The notes below the pieces were generated by a model. That model was not told the DNA's origin and ran no database searches. It worked only from the letters and a program-made list of their open reading frames with translations. 45,746 nucleotides of DNA from IMG/VR virus record IMGVR_UViG_3300030059_000930, positions 1-45,746 of that record. The stretch is one strand, 5' to 3'. The translations under genes were made by a program, and so were the position numbers. Origin of the DNA: a virus (taxonomy: Duplodnaviria > Caudoviricetes). Below are positions 18,655 to 42,797 of the stretch, piece after piece. The first letter of the stretch is position 1; every line of letters begins with the position of its first letter.

Positions 18655-18729
18655 CTTTACTTTTACTTTACAAGTAAAGTAAAATTTTAGTAACAAATTA
18701 TAAATAATACTTTACTTTTGAGGAATACC

Positions 18730-19224
18730 ATGAATATATTTTACGTACACAAAGACCCTGTTTATGCAGCAATGTGCTTACCCGATAAACTAGTAGTCAA
18801 GATGCCTCTAGAGTCAGCTCAGATGCTTAGTACTGCACACCGTGTACTTAGTGGTGATGATTACTGTAACGAGCGTGGGCTATATAAAACTGCTCATATC
18901 AATCACCCATGTAGTATATGGGCTAGGGAAACTAGTGAAAACTATCACTGGTTATACTGTCATTTTCTTGCTTTATCTAAGGAGTATGAAAACAGGTACG
19001 GTAGAAAACACCTTAGTTACGTAAAGTTAAAAGACTGCTTATTAGAAATGCCCCTTACTATTAAAGACGGTAACTTAACTCCTATGGCTCAAGCTATGCC
19101 CGACCAGTATAAAAACACTGACCCTGTTAAAGCCTACCGTGATTACGTAGTTAACGAAAAGCATTACGCTCAGTGGAATAAACTACCTGATAGGCAACCA
19201 GACTGGTGGCAACATGCGTCCTAG
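18730..19224 (+). CDS. Pyrimidine-dimer DNA glycosylase/endonuclease V-like protein
   Basis: MNIFY...DKLVVKMPLESAQMLST, H.NHPCSIW, AYRDY motifs; GAGGA RBS before ATG 18730. Confidence 0.7.
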   Translation: MNIFYVHKDPVYAAMCLPDKLVVKMPLESAQMLSTAHRVLSGDDYCNERGLYKTAHINHPCSIWARETSENYHWLYCHFLALSKEYENRYGRKHLSYVKLKDCLLEMPLTIKDGNLTPMAQAMPDQYKNTDPVKAYRDYVVNEKHYAQWNKLPDRQPDWWQHAS

Positions 19225-19546
19225 TAGTGCTAAAGCTAAAGGTCGTAAACTACAGCAATGGTTTGCTAGTAAGTTAGTAGAGATACTAGGTCTTGACCCA
19301 GAGGATTTAGAAAGTAGACCTATGGGTAGTCAAGGTGAGGACATTATAATGGGTAAACAGTCTAGGAACATATTTCCTTATTCAATCGAGTGTAAAAACC
19401 AAGAAGCTGTTAACGTATGGAAAGCCTATGAACAAGCTGAGAGTAATTGTGGTAAATATGAACCACTAGTCGTAATTAAACGTAACCGAAGTAAACCATT
19501 AGTATTAGTAGAAGCGGAATACTTTATTAAACTACATAAGGATTAA
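19214..19546 (+). CDS. PD-(D/E)XK nuclease, Holliday-junction resolvase-like
   Basis: SAKAKGR N-terminus, GEDI...SIECKNQE catalytic motif. Confidence 0.75.
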   Translation: MRPSSAKAKGRKLQQWFASKLVEILGLDPEDLESRPMGSQGEDIIMGKQSRNIFPYSIECKNQEAVNVWKAYEQAESNCGKYEPLVVIKRNRSKPLVLVEAEYFIKLHKD

Positions 19547-19547
19547 C

Positions 19548-20402
19548 ATGACAGATGACATTAATTTAAGGCGTGTACAAGATTTTAATAACTTTATGAT
19601 CGAGCGTCATAACATTTTTATAAAGAAGGAGTTAAACAATGATCCCTATCCATGGAGCGATGATCCTATTCTTACTGAGTACAGCTTTTGTAACGTGTAT
19701 CGTGAGTTAGACAGAGTAACTATCTGGATACGAGAAAACTGGAGAGAGCCACATGCTGACCACCCTAACCTACCTTTTGCTATGGCTATGGCTAGGCAAA
19801 TCAATTGGCCACCCACTTTAGAAGCTATCGGCTTTCCTGATACTTTTGACTCAGAGCGTATTAAAGGTATTATGAAAGAGCGTAAAGATAAAGGTGAGAA
19901 AATTTACACAGGTGCGTATATGTTAACAGGTACATTAGGCGGAACTAAAATAGAACAAACAGTTGACAAAATACTTACACCACTATATGCTAACTATCAC
20001 GGTGATTTTGATTTTAGTAGTATAGAAAACTGTTGGAAAAGTTTTTTACCTTATCCTGGATTTAGTGATTTTATGTCTTACGAGGTAGCTACTGATTTAC
20101 GTCATACTAAATGGTTACGTAACGCACCTGATATCATGACTTGGGCTAATCCTGGACCAGGAGCTATGAGAGGACTTAATAGAATATTCGGTAGAACGTT
20201 AGACAGTAAACAAAAGAAGCCCCTCTTTATACAAGAGATGAGAGACTTACTAGCCTTACTCAATAACACACCATTACCGCTAGAAATGAGAGACATAGAA
20301 CATTGTTTATGCGAGTTTGATAAATATGAGAGGACACGTTTAGGTCAAGGTAGACCACGATCCAGATATAAACCACGTGAATATGAGGAGGACATACTAT
20401 AA
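19548..20402 (+). CDS. aGPT-Pplase clade 1 / 5-hmdU DNA kinase helical-domain family protein (thymidine hypermodification)
   Basis: ERH.I..K....PWS.DPIL..Y.FCNVYRELDR, YTGAY, F.SYEV.TDL, GPGA.RGL, DIEH.LCEFDKY motifs. Confidence 0.8.
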   Translation: MTDDINLRRVQDFNNFMIERHNIFIKKELNNDPYPWSDDPILTEYSFCNVYRELDRVTIWIRENWREPHADHPNLPFAMAMARQINWPPTLEAIGFPDTFDSERIKGIMKERKDKGEKIYTGAYMLTGTLGGTKIEQTVDKILTPLYANYHGDFDFSSIENCWKSFLPYPGFSDFMSYEVATDLRHTKWLRNAPDIMTWANPGPGAMRGLNRIFGRTLDSKQKKPLFIQEMRDLLALLNNTPLPLEMRDIEHCLCEFDKYERTRLGQGRPRSRYKPREYEEDIL

Positions 20403-21184
20403 TGATAATTTATATTCCAACTAGAGGCAGAGCACACGATCAAGTTACCCTGTCATTTTTTCCAGAGGAGATGCGTAAAGAAGTAGTCCTCGTTATTGAT
20501 GATGATGAGGAGCATTTATACAAAGATAAATACGATTGTAAATACATGGTTATCCCTTCATCTATAAAAGGTATATCAGGTAAACGTAAATTTATACACG
20601 ATAACACCACCGACCCTAAGATAGTTATGTTAGATGATGACCTACGTTTTTATATACGTAAATCTCCTACAGACTGGCATTTAAGGTACATGGAACCTGA
20701 AGAGTATCCTGCTTTATTTGGGTTACTGGATAAGTGGCTTGATGACCATGCACATGTAGGTGTTAGTGGTAGAGAAGGTAATAACCGAGTAGAGCACTTA
20801 TCAGTAGAGAATACTAGGTACATGAGAGTACTAGGGTATAACCTAGATATGTTCGAAGGCATTGAGTTAGCTAGAACTGAAGTTATGGAAGATTTTGATA
20901 TAAACCTACAGTTATTGCGTCAAGGTAAAGGTAGTAAAATTAGTTATTATTATGCTCAAGGTCAAAAGTCTTCTAATGCTGCTGGCGGTTGTAGTGAGTG
21001 GCGTACTGAAGAAGTACAGTCAAAAGGTGCTGAATTACTACATGAGCTACACCCTGACTTTGTTAAAATAGTTGAAAAGGAAACTAAAACAGCATGGGGT
21101 GGTGGCATACGTAAAGATGTAAACGTACAGTGGAAAAGAGCATACAATAGTGGTGTAAGTAAACAATCAGGGGAGTTATTTTAA
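20402..21184 (+). CDS. GT-A fold glycosyltransferase, TET-associated (TAGT/GREB1-like) type
   Basis: IYIPTRGR, MLDDDL (DxD), EDFD..LQLL..G, N..GGC motifs. Confidence 0.8.
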   Translation: MIIYIPTRGRAHDQVTLSFFPEEMRKEVVLVIDDDEEHLYKDKYDCKYMVIPSSIKGISGKRKFIHDNTTDPKIVMLDDDLRFYIRKSPTDWHLRYMEPEEYPALFGLLDKWLDDHAHVGVSGREGNNRVEHLSVENTRYMRVLGYNLDMFEGIELARTEVMEDFDINLQLLRQGKGSKISYYYAQGQKSSNAAGGCSEWRTEEVQSKGAELLHELHPDFVKIVEKETKTAWGGGIRKDVNVQWKRAYNSGVSKQSGELF

Positions 21185-22218
21185 TGGATGTAATTAGATG
21201 TAGAAACGTTAATGATGGTTTTATAAAAGCTATGGATATGCTTTCTTTTGATCAAGAAGATATAAAAGAAAGTCGAGTAGGTAACGTAGTAGAACATGAG
21301 TGTGCTGTGAGCACAGTATATGATAAACCTTGGGAAAGAGTTTTATTTGAAGAAGTAAGAGATGCTAATCCATTCTTTCATTTTATGGAGGGTTTGTGGA
21401 TGTTGGCTGGTCGTAATGATTTAACTTTTGTTAAACAGTATAACAATCGTATGAGTGATTATAGTGATGATGGTGAAACACTACATGGTGCTTATGGTTG
21501 GAGATGGATAGACTATTTCCGTGATGGTTCTAGTGTAGCTTTAGGTACTATCAACCAGTTAGAAATCATTATTGAAAGACTAAAGAATGATCCTACCGAT
21601 AGAAGATGCGTGTTACAGATGTGGGATCCCGTAAATGACTTAGATCGTAAAGGCGTAGATGTACCTTGTAACACTACTATTTATTTTAAGATACGTAATA
21701 ACAGGTTATTAATGACAGTTTGCTGTAGGTCTAACGACGCTATATGGGGCACATTCGGGGCTAACGTAGTACATATGTCTATGTTACAAGAATACGTAGC
21801 TAGTGCTATAGATGTAGAAATAGGTGAGTACACTCAAGTTAGTGATAGTTTTCACGCATACACTAAAGTATTTGATGAAATGCATTCTAGGCTAGAAGAG
21901 TCTGACGCTTTTGACTACTATTCAATTAAACATTTTGAGAACCCATATGATAATAAATCCATTAATTATTTCCCTATGTTTAATAGCGATAACATAGAAG
22001 ATTGGAATAAAGATTTAGTAAAATTTTTAGATCGTAAACCTTTTCAAGATATAGAGTTTGATGACGTATTTTTTAGTGATGTAGCTGTGCCTTTACAAGA
22101 TGCATGGTTTTTACATAAGCAAGGTGATACTGATGATGCTATGTCTGAGGTTCAAAACTGTGCTGCTACTGATTGGGCAACCGCTGGTTTTGACTGGTTG
22201 TTGAGGAGGACTAAATGA
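21184..22218 (+). CDS. Thymidylate-synthase-superfamily enzyme, probable dUMP hydroxymethylase
   Basis: GAYG.RW, DPTDRRCV, catalytic PC, RSND..WG...N; the Asn indicates a uracil substrate; divergent from canonical ThyA; context of modification genes. Confidence 0.75.
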   Translation: MDVIRCRNVNDGFIKAMDMLSFDQEDIKESRVGNVVEHECAVSTVYDKPWERVLFEEVRDANPFFHFMEGLWMLAGRNDLTFVKQYNNRMSDYSDDGETLHGAYGWRWIDYFRDGSSVALGTINQLEIIIERLKNDPTDRRCVLQMWDPVNDLDRKGVDVPCNTTIYFKIRNNRLLMTVCCRSNDAIWGTFGANVVHMSMLQEYVASAIDVEIGEYTQVSDSFHAYTKVFDEMHSRLEESDAFDYYSIKHFENPYDNKSINYFPMFNSDNIEDWNKDLVKFLDRKPFQDIEFDDVFFSDVAVPLQDAWFLHKQGDTDDAMSEVQNCAATDWATAGFDWLLRRTK

Positions 22219-22901
22219 GTGATAAAATACATCAATGGTCATATAGTAGATTAGGTACTTTTGAAAAGTGCCCTAAGAAAGCACACTATGCTTACATTAA
22301 ACGTATAAAAGAGCCAGGAAATAAAGCTATGGATAGAGGTAAAGATATCCATACTATGTGTGAAGATTATATAAGAGGTCGTTATGATGAGATACCTAAA
22401 CCTTTAGCTGACTTTGAAGAAGCTTTTGATGCATTAAAAGAACTTCACCTTAAAAGTTACGTGACATGTGAGGGTGATTGGGCTTTTGATAAAGATTGGA
22501 AACCTGCTCCATGGTTTGGTGAAACTACATGGGGTAGGGCTAAAGTAGATGCTTTTGTACACATAGACGGCACAGATACCGCTAGAGTTATAGACTTTAA
22601 AACAGGTAGATATGACGGCAATCAAGAAACACATAGAGAACAGTGTGAGTTATATGGTGCGGTTGTACTAGAACGTATGCCTGAAATTAAAACTATAACT
22701 ACAGAGCTGTGGTATTTAGACCATGGTAAAATAGATAGGTACGAATATAGTGCTGATAACATAGTTCATAAACAAAAGAAGTTAAATGACAGAGCCGTAG
22801 CCATGACAACAGCTACAGAGTTCCCAGCTAAACCTAGTACGTTTGGTTGTAAATGGTGTTACTTTGGTAAGGAGAAAATGTGTAATGACAGATATGAATG
22901 A
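22215..22901 (+). CDS. PD-(D/E)XK RecB/Cas4-like exonuclease
   Basis: WSYSRL..F..CP, KVD...IDFKTG, Q..LY, terminal CKWC......C cluster. Confidence 0.85.
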   Translation: MSDKIHQWSYSRLGTFEKCPKKAHYAYIKRIKEPGNKAMDRGKDIHTMCEDYIRGRYDEIPKPLADFEEAFDALKELHLKSYVTCEGDWAFDKDWKPAPWFGETTWGRAKVDAFVHIDGTDTARVIDFKTGRYDGNQETHREQCELYGAVVLERMPEIKTITTELWYLDHGKIDRYEYSADNIVHKQKKLNDRAVAMTTATEFPAKPSTFGCKWCYFGKEKMCNDRYE

Positions 22902-23385
22902 TTTATTTAATATGATACGTGGTGGAACTATTAAACGTTACCACACACTAGAAACTATAGGTGAGCAATCAGTAGCTTCTCATTCTTGGGGCGTAGCTAT
23001 AATACTACAATATCTTGAGCCTAACGTAAGTAAAGAAGCTATATTAAGAGCTTTAACTCATGACGTAGCTGAACTATTTACTGGTGATATTCCTGCCCCT
23101 GTCAAGTGGGCTAACCCTGATTTAGTAGAAGTATTAAAAAGGATAGAAGATAAGTATGAAAGTGACATAGGCATTAGTTATAAGCTCGACCCAATAGAAA
23201 CTAAGTTGGGTAAACAGGCGGACATGTTTGAGTTACTAGTATTTTGTGTACGTCAAAGGCGTTTAGGTAATACTAATATGAATGAAGTTTTTAGTAACGG
23301 TGTTGAGTTTTTAGCATCAAACGATTTAAACAATAAAGGTAAACAGTTACTGGGTTATCTTATTAAGATATACGGAGGTATATAA
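22894..23385 (+). CDS. HD-domain 5'-deoxynucleotidase (YfbR-like)
   Basis: KRY...QSVASHS, THDVAE.FTGDIP.PVK, ADMFE; start uncertain (22885 or 22894). Confidence 0.85.
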   Translation: MNDLFNMIRGGTIKRYHTLETIGEQSVASHSWGVAIILQYLEPNVSKEAILRALTHDVAELFTGDIPAPVKWANPDLVEVLKRIEDKYESDIGISYKLDPIETKLGKQADMFELLVFCVRQRRLGNTNMNEVFSNGVEFLASNDLNNKGKQLLGYLIKIYGGI

Positions 23386-23678
23386 TGTCGGGTAGTGATT
23401 TTGATAAAATACACGATTTAGGTGTAGGTGATGCAGTAGCTTTGCGTAAAGCTCAAGAAAGTTATGGTGATAGTTGGCGTATGAGAGGTGGCGTAGGTGC
23501 TTTTATGATGCTGGCTCGTAAATGGGATAGGATAGAAAACCAAGCTAAAGATAACGATTATGACGTATTTAAAACTATTGAGATGGATCCTAGTACCAAT
23601 GGTATACTAGATGACATACGTGATTTACGTAGATATCTGTTATTAGTTGAAGCTTATTGTGTCAACACCGATGATTAG
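23385..23678 (+). CDS. DUF1599 / nucleotide-modification-associated all-alpha (MazG-like) protein
   Basis: YGDSW...G.....RKWDRI.N...D...DL..Y pattern. Confidence 0.6.
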   Translation: MSGSDFDKIHDLGVGDAVALRKAQESYGDSWRMRGGVGAFMMLARKWDRIENQAKDNDYDVFKTIEMDPSTNGILDDIRDLRRYLLLVEAYCVNTDD

Positions 23679-24072
23679 AGGTATAACATTTGGGGCGTTT
23701 GATTTATTTCACGCTGGGCATATACTTATGCTGGCTGAAGCTAAAACTGTGTGCGACCATTTAACAGTTTGTATTCAAAAAGACCCAAGCTTAGATAGAC
23801 CAGAAAAAAATGTACCTATACAAAATATAGTTGAAAGACAGATTCAAGTTAAAGCGTGTAGATATGTTGAAGACATATTAGTTTACGAAAGGGAAGAAGA
23901 CTTATTAAATATATTAAGAGGCGTACAGTGGGATATAAGAATAATAGGTGAGGAGTACTATAGAAAACCATTTACTGGACGTGATGAGTTTGGTGTTGAA
24001 AAAATACATTGGAATGAAAGAAAACATGAGTTTTCATCTACGGAGTTGCGTAAAAGATGCCTAGACAAGTAA
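23671..24072 (+). CDS. TagD-like (glycerol-3-phosphate) cytidylyltransferase
   Basis: TFGAFDLFHAGH (HxGH), ER..QV.ACRYV, R.H.FSSTELR. Confidence 0.85.
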   Translation: MIRGITFGAFDLFHAGHILMLAEAKTVCDHLTVCIQKDPSLDRPEKNVPIQNIVERQIQVKACRYVEDILVYEREEDLLNILRGVQWDIRIIGEEYYRKPFTGRDEFGVEKIHWNERKHEFSSTELRKRCLDK

Positions 24073-25943
24073 GTTTATTTATACCAGAGGTGGATTGGAC
24101 TCCTCCTAGTAGTCTACCAGACCTAAGTAATTATAGTGAAGTAGCTGTAGACTTAGAAACATATGATCCACTATTAATGTCTCATGGTCCTTCTTGGGCT
24201 TTTGCTGATACTGGTTATATAACTGGTATAGCTATAGCCACTAAAGATTTTAATATGTACTTTCCTATTCAACATGAAGGTGGTGGTAATTTAGATAAAG
24301 ACTTAGTTATTAAATGGATGACTAAACAAATGAGCCACAGTAACGATAAAATATTTCATAACTCTCTTTATGATATGGGTTGGCTTAAACGTTATGGCAT
24401 AGAAGTTAAAGGTAAAATACAAGACACTATGTTTGCTGCTCCTCTTATAGATGAGAATCAATATAGTTACTCACTCAATAATCTTGGTGAAAAATATTGC
24501 GGTGAAACCAAAGACGAAACTTTACTTATTGAGGCAGCAAATGCTTACGGACTTAACCCTAAAAGTGAAATGTATAAATTACCAGCTAAGTATGTTGGTC
24601 CATATGGTGAAAAAGATGCAGGGTTAACACTACAGTTATGGCAGGTATTTAAAGAGTTAATTAAACTAGAGAACGTAAGTAAGATTTATGCGTTAGAGAC
24701 ATCATTAATACCTATTTTATTAGATATGAGATACACAGGCGTACCAGTAGATTTAGACGTAGCGGAACAAGTAAGTAAAAAGTTAAAGAAAGAGGAAGAT
24801 ACTATTTTGACCTCTATCCATAAAGAGTTCGGTATGAAGCCTGACTTATGGGCAGCACAGTCTATAGCTACAGTATTTGATAGAGCAGGACTAAGCTACC
24901 CACGTACACCTAAAACTAATGCACCATCTTTTGCTGGGGACTGGCTAGAGGCTCATGACCATAAGTTAGCAAACAACATAGTAAGAGCACGTAAGTTAAA
25001 TAAAGCTAGAACTACCTTTATAGATAAGATGATACTAGAACATAATGTTAACGGCAGAATACACGGAGAACTTCATCCTTTACGTAGCGACCGTGGTGGT
25101 ACTGTAACAGGTAGATTCAGTAGTAGTAACCCTAATCTACAGCAAGTACCAGCTCGTAATGATTATATTGGTCCACTCATACGTAGTATCTTTATACCCG
25201 AGAAGGATCATTACTGGGGGTGTTTTGATTATTCTCAACAAGAACCTAGATTAACAGTACACTACGCGTCAGCTACTGAGCAAGAAGGTGCTGAGGATGC
25301 AGTAGATGCTTATCGCAATAAAGACGCAGACTTCCATCAAGTAGTAGCAGACATGGCTAACATAAGTCGTAAAGAAGCTAAGATTATAAACTTAGGATTA
25401 AGTTACGGCATGGGTAAAGACAAACTAGTTAAACAGTTAGATTTGTCAATGCAGGAAGCAGAAATATTATTTGATACATATCATAAAAGAGTACCTTTTA
25501 TCAAAGGTTTACGTGATCAATGTGCTAGGCTTGGTGCTAACCGTGGATACATTACTACCATAGCTGGTCGTAAGTGTAGATTTAATTTATACGAGCCTAT
25601 GAATGATAGGCAACCAGCTTACCCATATGAAAAAGCTGTTACTGAGTATGGTAGTCAAGTTAAAAGAGCTTTTACTTATAAAGCTATGAATAGATTAATA
25701 CAAGGCTCAGCAGCAGATATGACTAAGCAAGCTATGATAGAGTTATACAAAGAAGGTATACTCCCTCATACTCAAGTACATGATGAATTAGATATTTCGG
25801 TTACTGACCCTGACCAGTGTGAGCTTATTATGCAGGTCATGGCAGATTGCACACCTTTATGTGTCCCCAATAAAGTTGATGCAGAGGTAGGTAATAGTTG
25901 GGGAGAAGCTACAGTACATTATAAGGAGTTTTTTAATGAGTAG
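24057..25943 (+). CDS. Family A DNA polymerase with 3'-5' exonuclease domain
   Basis: VDLET ExoI, TVTGRFSS..PNLQQ, DYSQQEPR (motif A), AKIINLGLSYG (motif B), VHDE (motif C). Confidence 0.95.
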   Translation: MPRQVSLFIPEVDWTPPSSLPDLSNYSEVAVDLETYDPLLMSHGPSWAFADTGYITGIAIATKDFNMYFPIQHEGGGNLDKDLVIKWMTKQMSHSNDKIFHNSLYDMGWLKRYGIEVKGKIQDTMFAAPLIDENQYSYSLNNLGEKYCGETKDETLLIEAANAYGLNPKSEMYKLPAKYVGPYGEKDAGLTLQLWQVFKELIKLENVSKIYALETSLIPILLDMRYTGVPVDLDVAEQVSKKLKKEEDTILTSIHKEFGMKPDLWAAQSIATVFDRAGLSYPRTPKTNAPSFAGDWLEAHDHKLANNIVRARKLNKARTTFIDKMILEHNVNGRIHGELHPLRSDRGGTVTGRFSSSNPNLQQVPARNDYIGPLIRSIFIPEKDHYWGCFDYSQQEPRLTVHYASATEQEGAEDAVDAYRNKDADFHQVVADMANISRKEAKIINLGLSYGMGKDKLVKQLDLSMQEAEILFDTYHKRVPFIKGLRDQCARLGANRGYITTIAGRKCRFNLYEPMNDRQPAYPYEKAVTEYGSQVKRAFTYKAMNRLIQGSAADMTKQAMIELYKEGILPHTQVHDELDISVTDPDQCELIMQVMADCTPLCVPNKVDAEVGNSWGEATVHYKEFFNE

Positions 25944-28922: not shown

Positions 28923-29076
28923 AGGTAGTAAGCGACGTCCTGAAAATACTAACAAGATACTCAAAAGCTGGGATAGAATATTCAAAAAGACACCGAAGAT
29001 CAGTAAGTTAGCAGATAAATTATTAGAGCGTTCGTTACAAAAAAGTGCGGACAAATTATTTAAAAAGGATAAATAA
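28915..29076 (+). CDS. Small basic protein (53 aa, MSKGSKRRPE...WDRIFKK), not in ORF track
   Basis: Fills the gap exactly, overlaps the TerS stop and is TAATG-coupled to the next gene; AAGGAG upstream. Confidence 0.65.
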   Translation: MSKGSKRRPENTNKILKSWDRIFKKTPKISKLADKLLERSLQKSADKLFKKDK

Positions 29077-29774
29077 TGGATAGATCAAAACCCTATAGAA
29101 TTAAAAACACTATGTTAGCTATACAGTCAGATTGGATGATAGATAAAACCACATTAGCATTAATACAAGACTCTGAGCTTGAAATTATAAAATTCCATGC
29201 GGGAGATGGTACTCAAGAATTAAATATACCTTTACAAGAATATATAAAAGAAGAACTACCTGACGTTTACTCAGTGCCTCTGTTTACGGAAGATTTCTGC
29301 GATATGATGTTAGACGAAATAAAAAACATCGAACATTATTTAGGTTTTACCGAAAATGATGACGAGGATGAGTTACGACAGATCCCTGAAGTTACTCTAC
29401 AAGATAACATCCCACAGTTATCTGAAAATCTACACAGCGTGGTATTAAATCACATGAACCCTTTATTCACCGCAGTATGGCAACGCTACAGTTTAAAAAT
29501 TAATTCAATACAGTTAGCCAACTATAATTTAGCTAAAAGAGAGCAGGGAGAGTGGCATCACGACGCTAGTGCTGATATAAGCGTAGTTGTACCTTTAAAC
29601 ACAGGTAAGTATCAAGGCGGAGGTACTGAGTTTCATGGTCGAGGAGTTGTACCCCCTTTACCACGAGGACATGCGTTATTTTTCCCTAGTTTTACACACA
29701 TGCACCGTGGTCTTAAAGTAGACAAAGGTGATAGGTATCTACTGGTTTTTTGGTTACTAGGTGCATACGATTAA
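29076..29774 (+). CDS. 2OG-Fe(II) dioxygenase (prolyl/lysyl-hydroxylase-like)
   Basis: HHD...LN...Y.GGGT.F...H.G..V..G.RY.LV (HxD...H...R) as in PLOD-type domains. Confidence 0.85.
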   Translation: MDRSKPYRIKNTMLAIQSDWMIDKTTLALIQDSELEIIKFHAGDGTQELNIPLQEYIKEELPDVYSVPLFTEDFCDMMLDEIKNIEHYLGFTENDDEDELRQIPEVTLQDNIPQLSENLHSVVLNHMNPLFTAVWQRYSLKINSIQLANYNLAKREQGEWHHDASADISVVVPLNTGKYQGGGTEFHGRGVVPPLPRGHALFFPSFTHMHRGLKVDKGDRYLLVFWLLGAYD

Positions 29775-42162: not shown

Positions 42163-42336
42163 ATGTTAGATAAGTTACGTAAACAAATTATAGAAAGACA
42201 AGAGCAATTAAAAACTGCACTTGCTGGTGGCGGTGTTCAAAATTTTGAAGGTTACCAAAAGATAGTAGGCGAAATTACAGGTCTGTCGTTTACTCTCTCA
42301 TTATTAAAAGACCTGCACAAGGATAATGAAGAATAA
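42163..42336 (+). CDS. Hypothetical protein preceding GroES
   Basis: Helical, Y...VG.I.GL motif; TAATG coupling to GroES. Confidence 0.65.
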   Translation: MLDKLRKQIIERQEQLKTALAGGGVQNFEGYQKIVGEITGLSFTLSLLKDLHKDNEE

Positions 42337-42797
42337 TGTCGAAAAACATAAAAGCCTTTGGTTCAGGCGGAGAACCAATTCCAAATAAAGTAGAGCGATT
42401 TATAGAACCTACAGAAAAACAAGAAACAGTAAACCCCGAAAGTGTTCACGAAGATAAAGAGTTACAATCTAAACTTCCTAAACCTACAGGGTATAGAATA
42501 TTGATACTTCCTTTTAGTCCTAAACAGAAAACAAAAGGCGGTATTTATTTAGCAGACTCAGTACTAGAAAAAGAACGTATTGGTACTAATGTTGGGTTTG
42601 TGGTATCACTCGGTCCAGACGCATATCGTGATGGGAATAAATTCCCTGAAGGTCCATGGTGTCAACCTAGAGACTGGGTTATATTTGGAAGGTATGCAGG
42701 AGCTAGACTCAAAATTGAGGGTGGCGAACTGCGTTTATTAAACGATGATGAAATTTTAGCTGTTGTCTCGAATCCCGAAGACATACAATCAGCTTAA
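42336..42797 (+). CDS. groES: Phage co-chaperonin GroES (Cpn10)
   Basis: P.GYRIL..P....TKGGI.L...G.VV.LGP...F..YAG....LLNDDEILAV. Confidence 0.9.
   Translation: MSKNIKAFGSGGEPIPNKVERFIEPTEKQETVNPESVHEDKELQSKLPKPTGYRILILPFSPKQKTKGGIYLADSVLEKERIGTNVGFVVSLGPDAYRDGNKFPEGPWCQPRDWVIFGRYAGARLKIEGGELRLLNDDEILAVVSNPEDIQSA

Follow-up and report, generated by a model that had tools for sequence, protein, structure and literature searches.

A kinase-free gene cluster predicted to glycosylate 5-hydroxymethyluracil in the DNA of a probable HTVC023P-type marine phage

In the 45,746-nucleotide stretch of viral DNA analysed here (IMG/VR record IMGVR_UViG_3300030059_000930; the whole stretch is hereafter the window), seven open reading frames (ORFs) lie between a resolvase gene and the gene for a family A DNA polymerase, PolA. 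The cluster is genuine and conserved, and it would represent an uncharacterised branch of 5-hydroxymethyldeoxyuridine (hmdU) hypermodification that lacks the kinase and was previously noted by annotation. Its most likely product, and in our judgement the probable one, is a sugar joined through oxygen to 5-hydroxymethyluracil (sugar-O-hmU), a base-J-like glycosylated thymine made without a DNA kinase. In the proposed pathway, a thymidylate-synthase (TS) homolog would convert dUMP to 5-hydroxymethyl-dUMP (hmdUMP), PolA would put hmdU into DNA in place of T, and a GT-A glycosyltransferase of the TAGT family would move a sugar from a nucleoside-diphosphate (NDP) sugar, probably host-made, to the hydroxymethyl oxygen in DNA; an HD-domain enzyme and a 97-amino-acid (aa) protein would probably deplete dTMP and dTTP. 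We infer these reactions, the sugar and the role of the remaining core protein, a clade 1 aGPT-Pplase, from gene identities, residues and co-occurrence, which were observed directly.

A preliminary description of the window had claimed seven overlapping or coupled genes between the resolvase and PolA, and the ORF coordinates and Pfam matches agree with that anatomy: the first ORF begins 1 nt past the resolvase, and successive ORFs overlap by 1-16 nt. It had not named one of the seven, a PD-(D/E)XK nuclease. The features are as follows.

19214-19546, resolvase, the upstream border of the cluster
19548..20402, + strand, aGPT-Pplase clade 1 protein, 284 aa; PF18723 (HMUDK_hel/aGPT-Pplase1), E 5.6e-49; E251-H-x-x-C255; putative function discussed below
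20402..21184, + strand, TAGT GT-A glycosyltransferase, 260 aa, predicted to glycosylate hmU in DNA; PF20691, E 2.3e-23; phrog_842
21184..22218, + strand, thymidylate-synthase homolog, 344 aa, predicted dUMP hydroxymethylase; Thymidylat_synt, E 1.8e-22
22215..22901, + strand, PD-(D/E)XK (Cas4-like) exonuclease, a replication module gene embedded in the cluster; PF12705 (PDDEXK_1), E 8.6e-20
22894..23385, + strand, HD-domain YfbR-like 5'-deoxynucleotidase, likely a dTMPase, accessory; PF12917, E 7.3e-17 (ATG start at 22894; longest frame from 22843)
23385..23678, + strand, conserved 97-aa protein, a core gene, possibly an all-alpha dNTP pyrophosphatase (DUF1599/Nmad1-like); no Pfam match
23671..24072, + strand, cytidylyltransferase-like protein, 133 aa from ATG, with an HxGH motif, of the TagD/HldC/ECT class, a mobile accessory gene; PF01467 (CTP_transf_like), E 1.2e-12
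24057..25943, + strand, family A DNA polymerase (PolA), HTVC023P type; PF00476 (DNA_pol_A), E 1e-59

Hydroxymethylation, glycosylation and the kinase module

The window TS homolog shares 45% identity with M6 gp58 and 46% with PhiJL001 gp24, compared with 21-22% for two conventional phage synthases. Among PDB entries the CMP hydroxymethylase MilA matches it best, and the protein scored below the cut-off of every NCBIfam thyA model. In this family, an acidic residue at the position of E. coli L143 is described as diagnostic of hydroxymethylation, Asn at N177 of dUMP as substrate, and the D169N change of 5-hydroxy-dCMP synthesis (PMC13326640). The window protein carries D159 at the L143 position, in place of the hydrophobic residue of dTMP synthases, together with N194 at N177, D185 at D169 and the catalytic C162. 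The same pattern occurs in M6 gp58 and SPO1 gp29, and D159, C162, N184, D185 and N194 are present in 79/79 related loci that could be scored. Because of these residues, in the window and across the loci, we predict a dUMP hydroxymethylase with hmdUMP as its product, so that the hmdU source named in the preliminary description holds at the level of diagnostic residues. Chemistry on dCMP, or the synthesis of 5-hydroxy-dCMP, is ruled out by N194 and D185.

The neighbouring glycosyltransferase scores 83.7 bits against the TAGT profile (cut-off 27.5) and is 45% identical to PhiJL001 gp22. It has the acidic GT-A motifs LDDD and EDFD, with D78-D79 and D164 invariant in 19 sequences; a PDB sequence search with the TAGT profile gave one weak match only. 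Phage GT-A enzymes related to it attach sugars to 5-hydroxymethylcytosine (5hmC) in DNA and are similar to the glucosyltransferase of base J synthesis, and many GT-A genes adjoining TS homologs have been mined (Pyle et al., 10.1101/2023.12.21.572611).

A scan with the TAGT profile confirmed 266 stretches; of the best 80, which we considered further, 77 span the region from aGPT-Pplase1 to PolA. Between these two genes all 77 loci carry the TAGT gene, the TS homolog and the 97-aa ORF, and 76 carry the nuclease; TAGT is thus tightly linked to TS in this set. Accessory genes within the cluster are less constant (HD gene in 22, dUTPase in 17, cytidylyltransferase in 23).

The preliminary description had also noted neither a P-loop kinase nor a second amino-acid:DNA transferase (AADT), and wider searches sustain this. 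No kinase or AADT query matched any of the 77 spanning loci; our own record, estimated to be 77% complete, has no 5-hmU DNA kinase (PF18748) and no AADT (PF18724); and a hidden Markov model (HMM) search of 32 whole TAGT-bearing records, six of them at least 90% complete, found neither above cut-off. M6 and Pam3, the positive controls for these HMM searches, both matched. The sole extra AADT match fell below cut-off, inside the PhiJL001 clade 1 gene. Five further records likewise yielded no kinase, in a search without its own positive control.

A second scan, centred on aGPT-Pplase1, approached the question from the other side. Among the best 80 of at least 579 confirmed stretches, we tabulated 79 rows (78 loci were new and one, L229, duplicates the contig of L309; two already-counted loci were omitted). 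TAGT alone accompanied the clade 1 gene in 61 rows, the kinase alone in 10, neither in 8, and both in none. Two of the eight rows with neither are short or cut, and in three a GT-B glycosyltransferase gene adjoins the clade 1 gene. Because of this split and these three rows, the kinase/AADT module, the GT-A enzyme and the GT-B enzyme are alternative partners of one core of TS and clade 1 protein. The trio of clade 1, TAGT and TS genes also recurs at a distance, in PhiJL001, LuckyBarnes, RSL1, L056-L060, L062, L296, L298 and L306.

In the three GT-B loci a Glycos_transf_1 gene (L292:7817-9154, L305:4764-6011, L311:4713-5972) stands beside aGPT-Pplase1 and a hydroxymethylase-type TS, and no kinase, AADT or TAGT was found there; we predict from these gene contents a second glycosyl-hmU branch.

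The HD gene holds the same slot in M6, PhiJL001 and Pam3. An AlkB-like 2-oxoglutarate (2OG)-Fe(II) oxygenase (for example L021:9306-9893) replaces the in-cluster HD gene in 6 of the 77 loci and is found elsewhere in the locus in 27 more. The 97-aa ORF has 3107 homologs, one of which is Pam3 gp54, located after the HD gene. The gene is present as first described; its label 'DUF1599-like' has the standing of a lead. The DUF1599 profile (PF07659) gave no match, and the name comes from an ESM Atlas score of 0.97 to a cluster with DUF1599 in 25% of its members.

The clade 1 aGPT-Pplase

The first gene of the cluster gives a full-length match to PF18723 (167 bits; cut-off 25), and its product is 39.9% identical to M6 gp55. 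The family assignment in the label 'aGPT-Pplase1/HMUDK-like' is therefore sound, and its reading as a kinase is not: the characterised M6 kinase is the P-loop protein gp54, and an AlphaFold model of the window protein (pLDDT 90) is all-helical with a helix-hairpin-helix (HhH). The top structural match is the AADT gp46 of PaMx11 (8z2m; Z 10.4, root-mean-square deviation 4.2, 215 residues aligned), tied with HhH DNA glycosylases (Z 10.1-10.3) and a queuine salvage enzyme; a PDB sequence search with the aGPT-Pplase1 profile gave no matches. PaMx11 gp46 is described as using Glu243, Thr244 and Cys247. The window protein has a corresponding E-x-x-x-C motif, E251-H252-x-x-C255, in which the Cys is kept in 78/78 loci and the Glu in 75/78; the correspondence with gp46 Glu243 and Cys247 is by motif, a weak hhalign match (E 0.14) and fold, not by residue-level superposition. 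With this motif retained, the clade 1 protein appears to have kept its catalytic machinery, although the kinase that would supply 5-PmdU is missing here.

In M6, the kinase is gp54, the transferase is the clade 2 protein gp51, and gp55 is dispensable for glycinyl-T (Lee 2022, PMC8989533). According to the same source, hmdU is absent from the virions of these phages, and gp51 in combination with borohydride gives thymidine; the route from 5-hmdU to thymidine in phage DNA was stated as an open question (Lee 2018, PMC5889632). Because its top match is the AADT fold and the ExxxC motif is retained, we consider the clade 1 protein a candidate for this hmU-to-thymine step. It would flip out hmU and attack C6 with Cys255, and our best guess is that it would clear unglycosylated hmU to thymine. 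The distribution of the family fits: it is missing from SPO1, a phage that retains hmU, and occurs in ViI and M6, phages without hmU in their virions, as well as in RSL1 and LuckyBarnes. SP10 counts against this role, since it makes glutamyl-T and is listed with a single aGPT-Pplase, so that the family may instead transfer groups. The full proposal, that abundant marine phages carry base-J-type glycosyl-hmU made from pre-replicative hmdU and that the clade 1 aGPT-Pplase is the missing hmU-to-T enzyme, acting through an AADT-like Cys and an exocyclic methylene without an hmU kinase, is tentative, and as a whole we hold it to be rather doubtful.

The cytidylyltransferase-like gene and competing readings

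The preliminary description had placed the cytidylyltransferase in the pathway and suggested that a CDP-activated polyol-phosphate is added to DNA by teichoic-acid-like chemistry. The gene itself has its HxGH-fold motifs intact (H14, H17, D38, K46 and S122 invariant in nine sequences) and gives PDB matches to ECT (E 7e-14) and TagD (E 1.4e-8). It falls below both the TagD equivalog TIGR01518 (41.8 bits; cut-off 165.4) and the heptose adenylyltransferase model TIGR02199 (53.1; cut-off 181.5), so its substrate cannot be read from the sequence. Membership in the pathway is unsupported, as the gene fails the co-occurrence check that the preliminary description itself proposed. Beyond the 23 in-cluster copies, 12 of the 77 loci have the gene elsewhere in the flank. 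It takes at least four other positions, and in relatives it can stand immediately behind PolA, about 5 kb beyond it, or ahead of the terminase. In the 54 loci where it is outside the cluster or absent, the TAGT remains 65-76% identical to that of the window. Nine IMG/VR relatives at least 90% complete have it in three cases, once in the cluster, and lack it in six, as does PhiJL001. Homologs were recovered from 80 loci, 13 belonging to the window's own clade; in the other 67, many of them fragments, tblastn found no TS, TAGT or aGPT-Pplase1, and an HMM search of 34 of the whole records, mostly fragments, found one TAGT that tblastn had overlooked. These homologs adjoin terminase, portal, clamp-loader and recombination genes and extend to cyanophages, vibriophages and a roseophage; a phage glycerol-3-phosphate cytidylyltransferase is listed alongside auxiliary metabolic genes in the literature. 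TagF and LicD were found in none of five records (two complete) in a search whose controls matched and which covered these two phosphotransferase families, and general family scans showed no sugar kinase, isomerase or epimerase among the window proteins. Polyol-phosphate on DNA is ruled out as the leading interpretation by these co-occurrence counts and by the lack of a TagF or LicD partner, and the cytidylyltransferase is most likely a mobile passenger.

In a tree, the window cytidylyltransferase groups with terminase-proximal copies (support 96/94). Polyphyly of the in-cluster genes is not claimed, since an AU test did not reject a single clade of them (p 0.43). One close relative carries a divergent copy at this slot: L152:11298, compared with window 23671, has a TAGT 99% and a PolA 93% identical to those of the window and a cytidylyltransferase only 65% identical, which suggests allele exchange.

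Several points weigh against sugar-O-hmU made as proposed. TAGT-type enzymes include the T-even beta-glucosyl-HMC (hydroxymethylcytosine) alpha-glucosyltransferase, which extends a sugar that is already attached, and the window TAGT might therefore not catalyse the first step. A single phage lineage accounts for most of the 77 loci, which makes their counts non-independent. General family scans of the window proteins showed neither a dNMP kinase nor a dCMP deaminase, and host enzymes would therefore be needed. The genome MW202897 has TS and TAGT genes without a clade 1 gene, and our literature search turned up no assay of a TAGT on hmU-DNA from a TS-encoding phage.

Against the reading of the cytidylyltransferase as a passenger stand the AU result above and the constancy of the gene near the window: each of the 17 closest loci, those with PolA at least 87% identical, has it within the cluster and translationally coupled, and six others do too. 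Such coupling raises the possibility that, in this sub-clade, the gene supplies the donor, and here an NDP-sugar is likelier than a CDP-polyol. In 8 of the 67 other loci, one of them with TAGT, members of the family have phosphomannomutase, epimerase or UDP-glucose dehydrogenase genes as neighbours; a distant (24%) cytidylyltransferase-cupin fusion immediately precedes a TAGT 54% identical to the window's in L052-L054; heptosyl-5hmC was shown to require a CTP-transferase-like gene (Pyle et al., 10.1101/2023.12.21.572611); and the modification cluster of SP-15 includes a TagF-like gene. Set against this are the scattered positions and foreign neighbourhoods of the gene, the lack of sugar-nucleotide and TagF/LicD partners, and the general knowledge that GT-A enzymes normally move a sugar rather than a polyol-phosphate. 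We give a donor-supplying role a slim chance overall: an unusual NDP-sugar for TAGT is quite improbable, and transfer of polyol-phosphate onto DNA from a CDP-polyol is highly improbable.

The clade 1 protein could alternatively be a group transferase working with TAGT, either using the sugar or the bare hydroxyl as leaving group or adding a group that TAGT then glycosylates, so that the final base would not be simple sugar-O-hmU. The modelled AADT fold, the match of its E-x-x-x-C to gp46, the usual adjacency of the clade 1 and TAGT genes and the case of SP10 favour this. We nevertheless judge it unlikely: M6 gp55 is dispensable (PMC8989533), an O-glycoside is by general chemistry a poor leaving group, and the clade 1 gene is kept whether its partner is a kinase/AADT, TAGT or GT-B module, which agrees better with a housekeeping function common to all. 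Slimmer than either is the chance that the DNA is not hypermodified at all, with plain hmU (or a TS that makes dTMP) and a TAGT acting on a non-DNA acceptor. About 65% of phage contigs with such glycosyltransferases are reported to have no base-modification neighbour (Pyle et al., 10.1101/2023.12.21.572611), and three close loci, L052-L054, have TAGT in another context. That context, however, is a ParB-TET pair of thymine-dioxygenase type, itself another predicted source of hmU, and the invariant TS linkage and the lack of the hydrophobic L143 residue in TS also count against this reading.

Known systems, setting and variant gene sets

The closest published gene set is that of HTVC023P-type pelagiphages, in which TS, aGPT-Pplase1, a deoxynucleotidase and a glucosyltransferase were annotated beside PolA (Wittmers et al. 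2022, PMC9599517). By PolA these belong to the same phage group; the published account is annotation, with no product proposed or tested in the text available, and its main text does not use the word 'cytidylyltransferase'. The earlier statement that no characterised pathway has this combination therefore stands as to characterisation, although the gene set minus the cytidylyltransferase was already in print. The window shares with M6, PaMx11 and ViI (PMC5889632, PMC8989533) the dUMP hydroxymethylase (45%), clade 1 aGPT-Pplase (40%), HD enzyme and PolA in the same order, and differs in having a GT-A glycosyltransferase instead of the P-loop 5-hmU DNA kinase and clade 2 AADT. With the phage TET-associated GT-A enzymes (10.1101/2023.12.21.572611) and base J it shares the Pfam family TAGT and a predicted sugar-O-CH2 linkage at C5. 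The phage enzymes were tested on TET-made 5hmC and base J arises from JBP-made hmU, whereas hmU in the window is predicted to come from a pre-replicative TS homolog; there is no Tet_JBP match among 20 window proteins, and a TET query matched none in two compared locus sets, one being the 79 aGPT-Pplase1 rows. Judged by these genes, the resemblance to the base J pathway is limited to the glycosyl step. SP-15 and Carin-5 (PMC5977210, PMC12686479) also make glycosylated T analogs, and SP-15 is a precedent for teichoic-acid-type genes in a DNA-modification cluster; their large sugar-nucleotide clusters, pentyl-phosphate linker and, in SP-15, TagF-like gene have no counterpart found in the window.

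The cultured phages PhiJL001 and LuckyBarnes have clade 1 aGPT-Pplase, TAGT and hydroxymethylase-type TS genes clustered with no kinase found. They represent other phage lineages; PhiJL001 lacks the cytidylyltransferase and LuckyBarnes has two TAGT-type genes. We found no report on the DNA chemistry of either. More generally, a search of titles and abstract openings, with few subscription journals, returned no TS-made, TAGT-glycosylated hmU in phage DNA and no function for clade 1. Iyer et al. 2013, who defined TAGT and aGPT-Pplase, reportedly predicted TAGT glycosylation of hydroxymethyl-pyrimidines in such contexts, and that prior prediction may be fuller than assessed here. New here are the mutual exclusion of TAGT and the kinase module in the 79 tabulated loci, the replacement of TAGT by GT-B, and the modelled AADT-like fold of clade 1 with its ExxxC motif.

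If sugar-O-hmU is indeed the product, a common ocean phage group protects its DNA with a base-J-type glycosylated thymine. The characterised examples of this chemistry that we found are from kinetoplastids and, with other linkers, from SP-15-like phages. The pathway would add a third branch to those that start from hmdU, bypassing the phosphorylated intermediate. Since the clade 1 aGPT-Pplase stands in these clusters without a kinase, the 5-hmdU-to-thymidine question (Lee 2018, PMC5889632) becomes open to direct testing, and the same gene trio is available in cultured phages.

The rest of the window carries terminase, portal, capsid, primase and UvrD helicase genes. Its PolA is 51.5% identical to that of 023Pt_psg01 and 48.5% to that of HTVC023P, and its best matches also include DSL-LC04 and HTVC027P (48-52%); because these are the closest polymerases, the phage is probably an HTVC023P-type marine podovirus. 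Pyridoxal-phosphate and radical S-adenosylmethionine (SAM) families did not appear among 20 and 41 window proteins in general scans, which did not search for them by name. Two genes upstream of the cluster, at 18718-19224, is a DenV-like pyrimidine-dimer DNA glycosylase gene kept in most relatives; a 2OG-Fe(II) oxygenase (29076-29774) and a GroES-like co-chaperonin gene (42336-42797) lie farther downstream.

Related loci show further variants of the cassette. The cluster of RSL1 (L141:8105-16499) holds TS, clade 1 aGPT-Pplase, three TAGT-type genes, two nucleotidyltransferases, a sulfotransferase and an APS kinase, from which we predict a sulfated oligosaccharide on hmU. L052:4714-7777 (also L053 and L054) combines ParB-N, a TET/JBP dioxygenase, the cytidylyltransferase-cupin fusion and TAGT, a predicted post-replicative route to the same glycosyl-hmU. 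T4-like contigs (L097:2900-9368, L106-L111, L114) carry a cytidylyltransferase of the same family as the window's, with phosphomannomutase and UDP-glucose dehydrogenase, downstream of a family B polymerase, and L097 adds TAGT and an epimerase. An FkbM-type methyltransferase occupies the cassette slot in L276, L280, L292 and L298; in L298 (7121-11394), between aGPT-Pplase1 and TAGT, it is joined by an acyl-carrier protein, a radical SAM/SPASM protein and a GT61 glycosyltransferase. L299:7476-11337 has AADT-like, kinase-like and sulfotransferase genes beside aGPT-Pplase1 and TS. Finally, L303:6650-10403 and L310:2065-5998 place a kinase, an AADT-like gene and myo-inositol-1-phosphate synthase beside aGPT-Pplase1, with an FkbM methyltransferase in L303, gene sets that point to a possible inositol-thymidine pathway.

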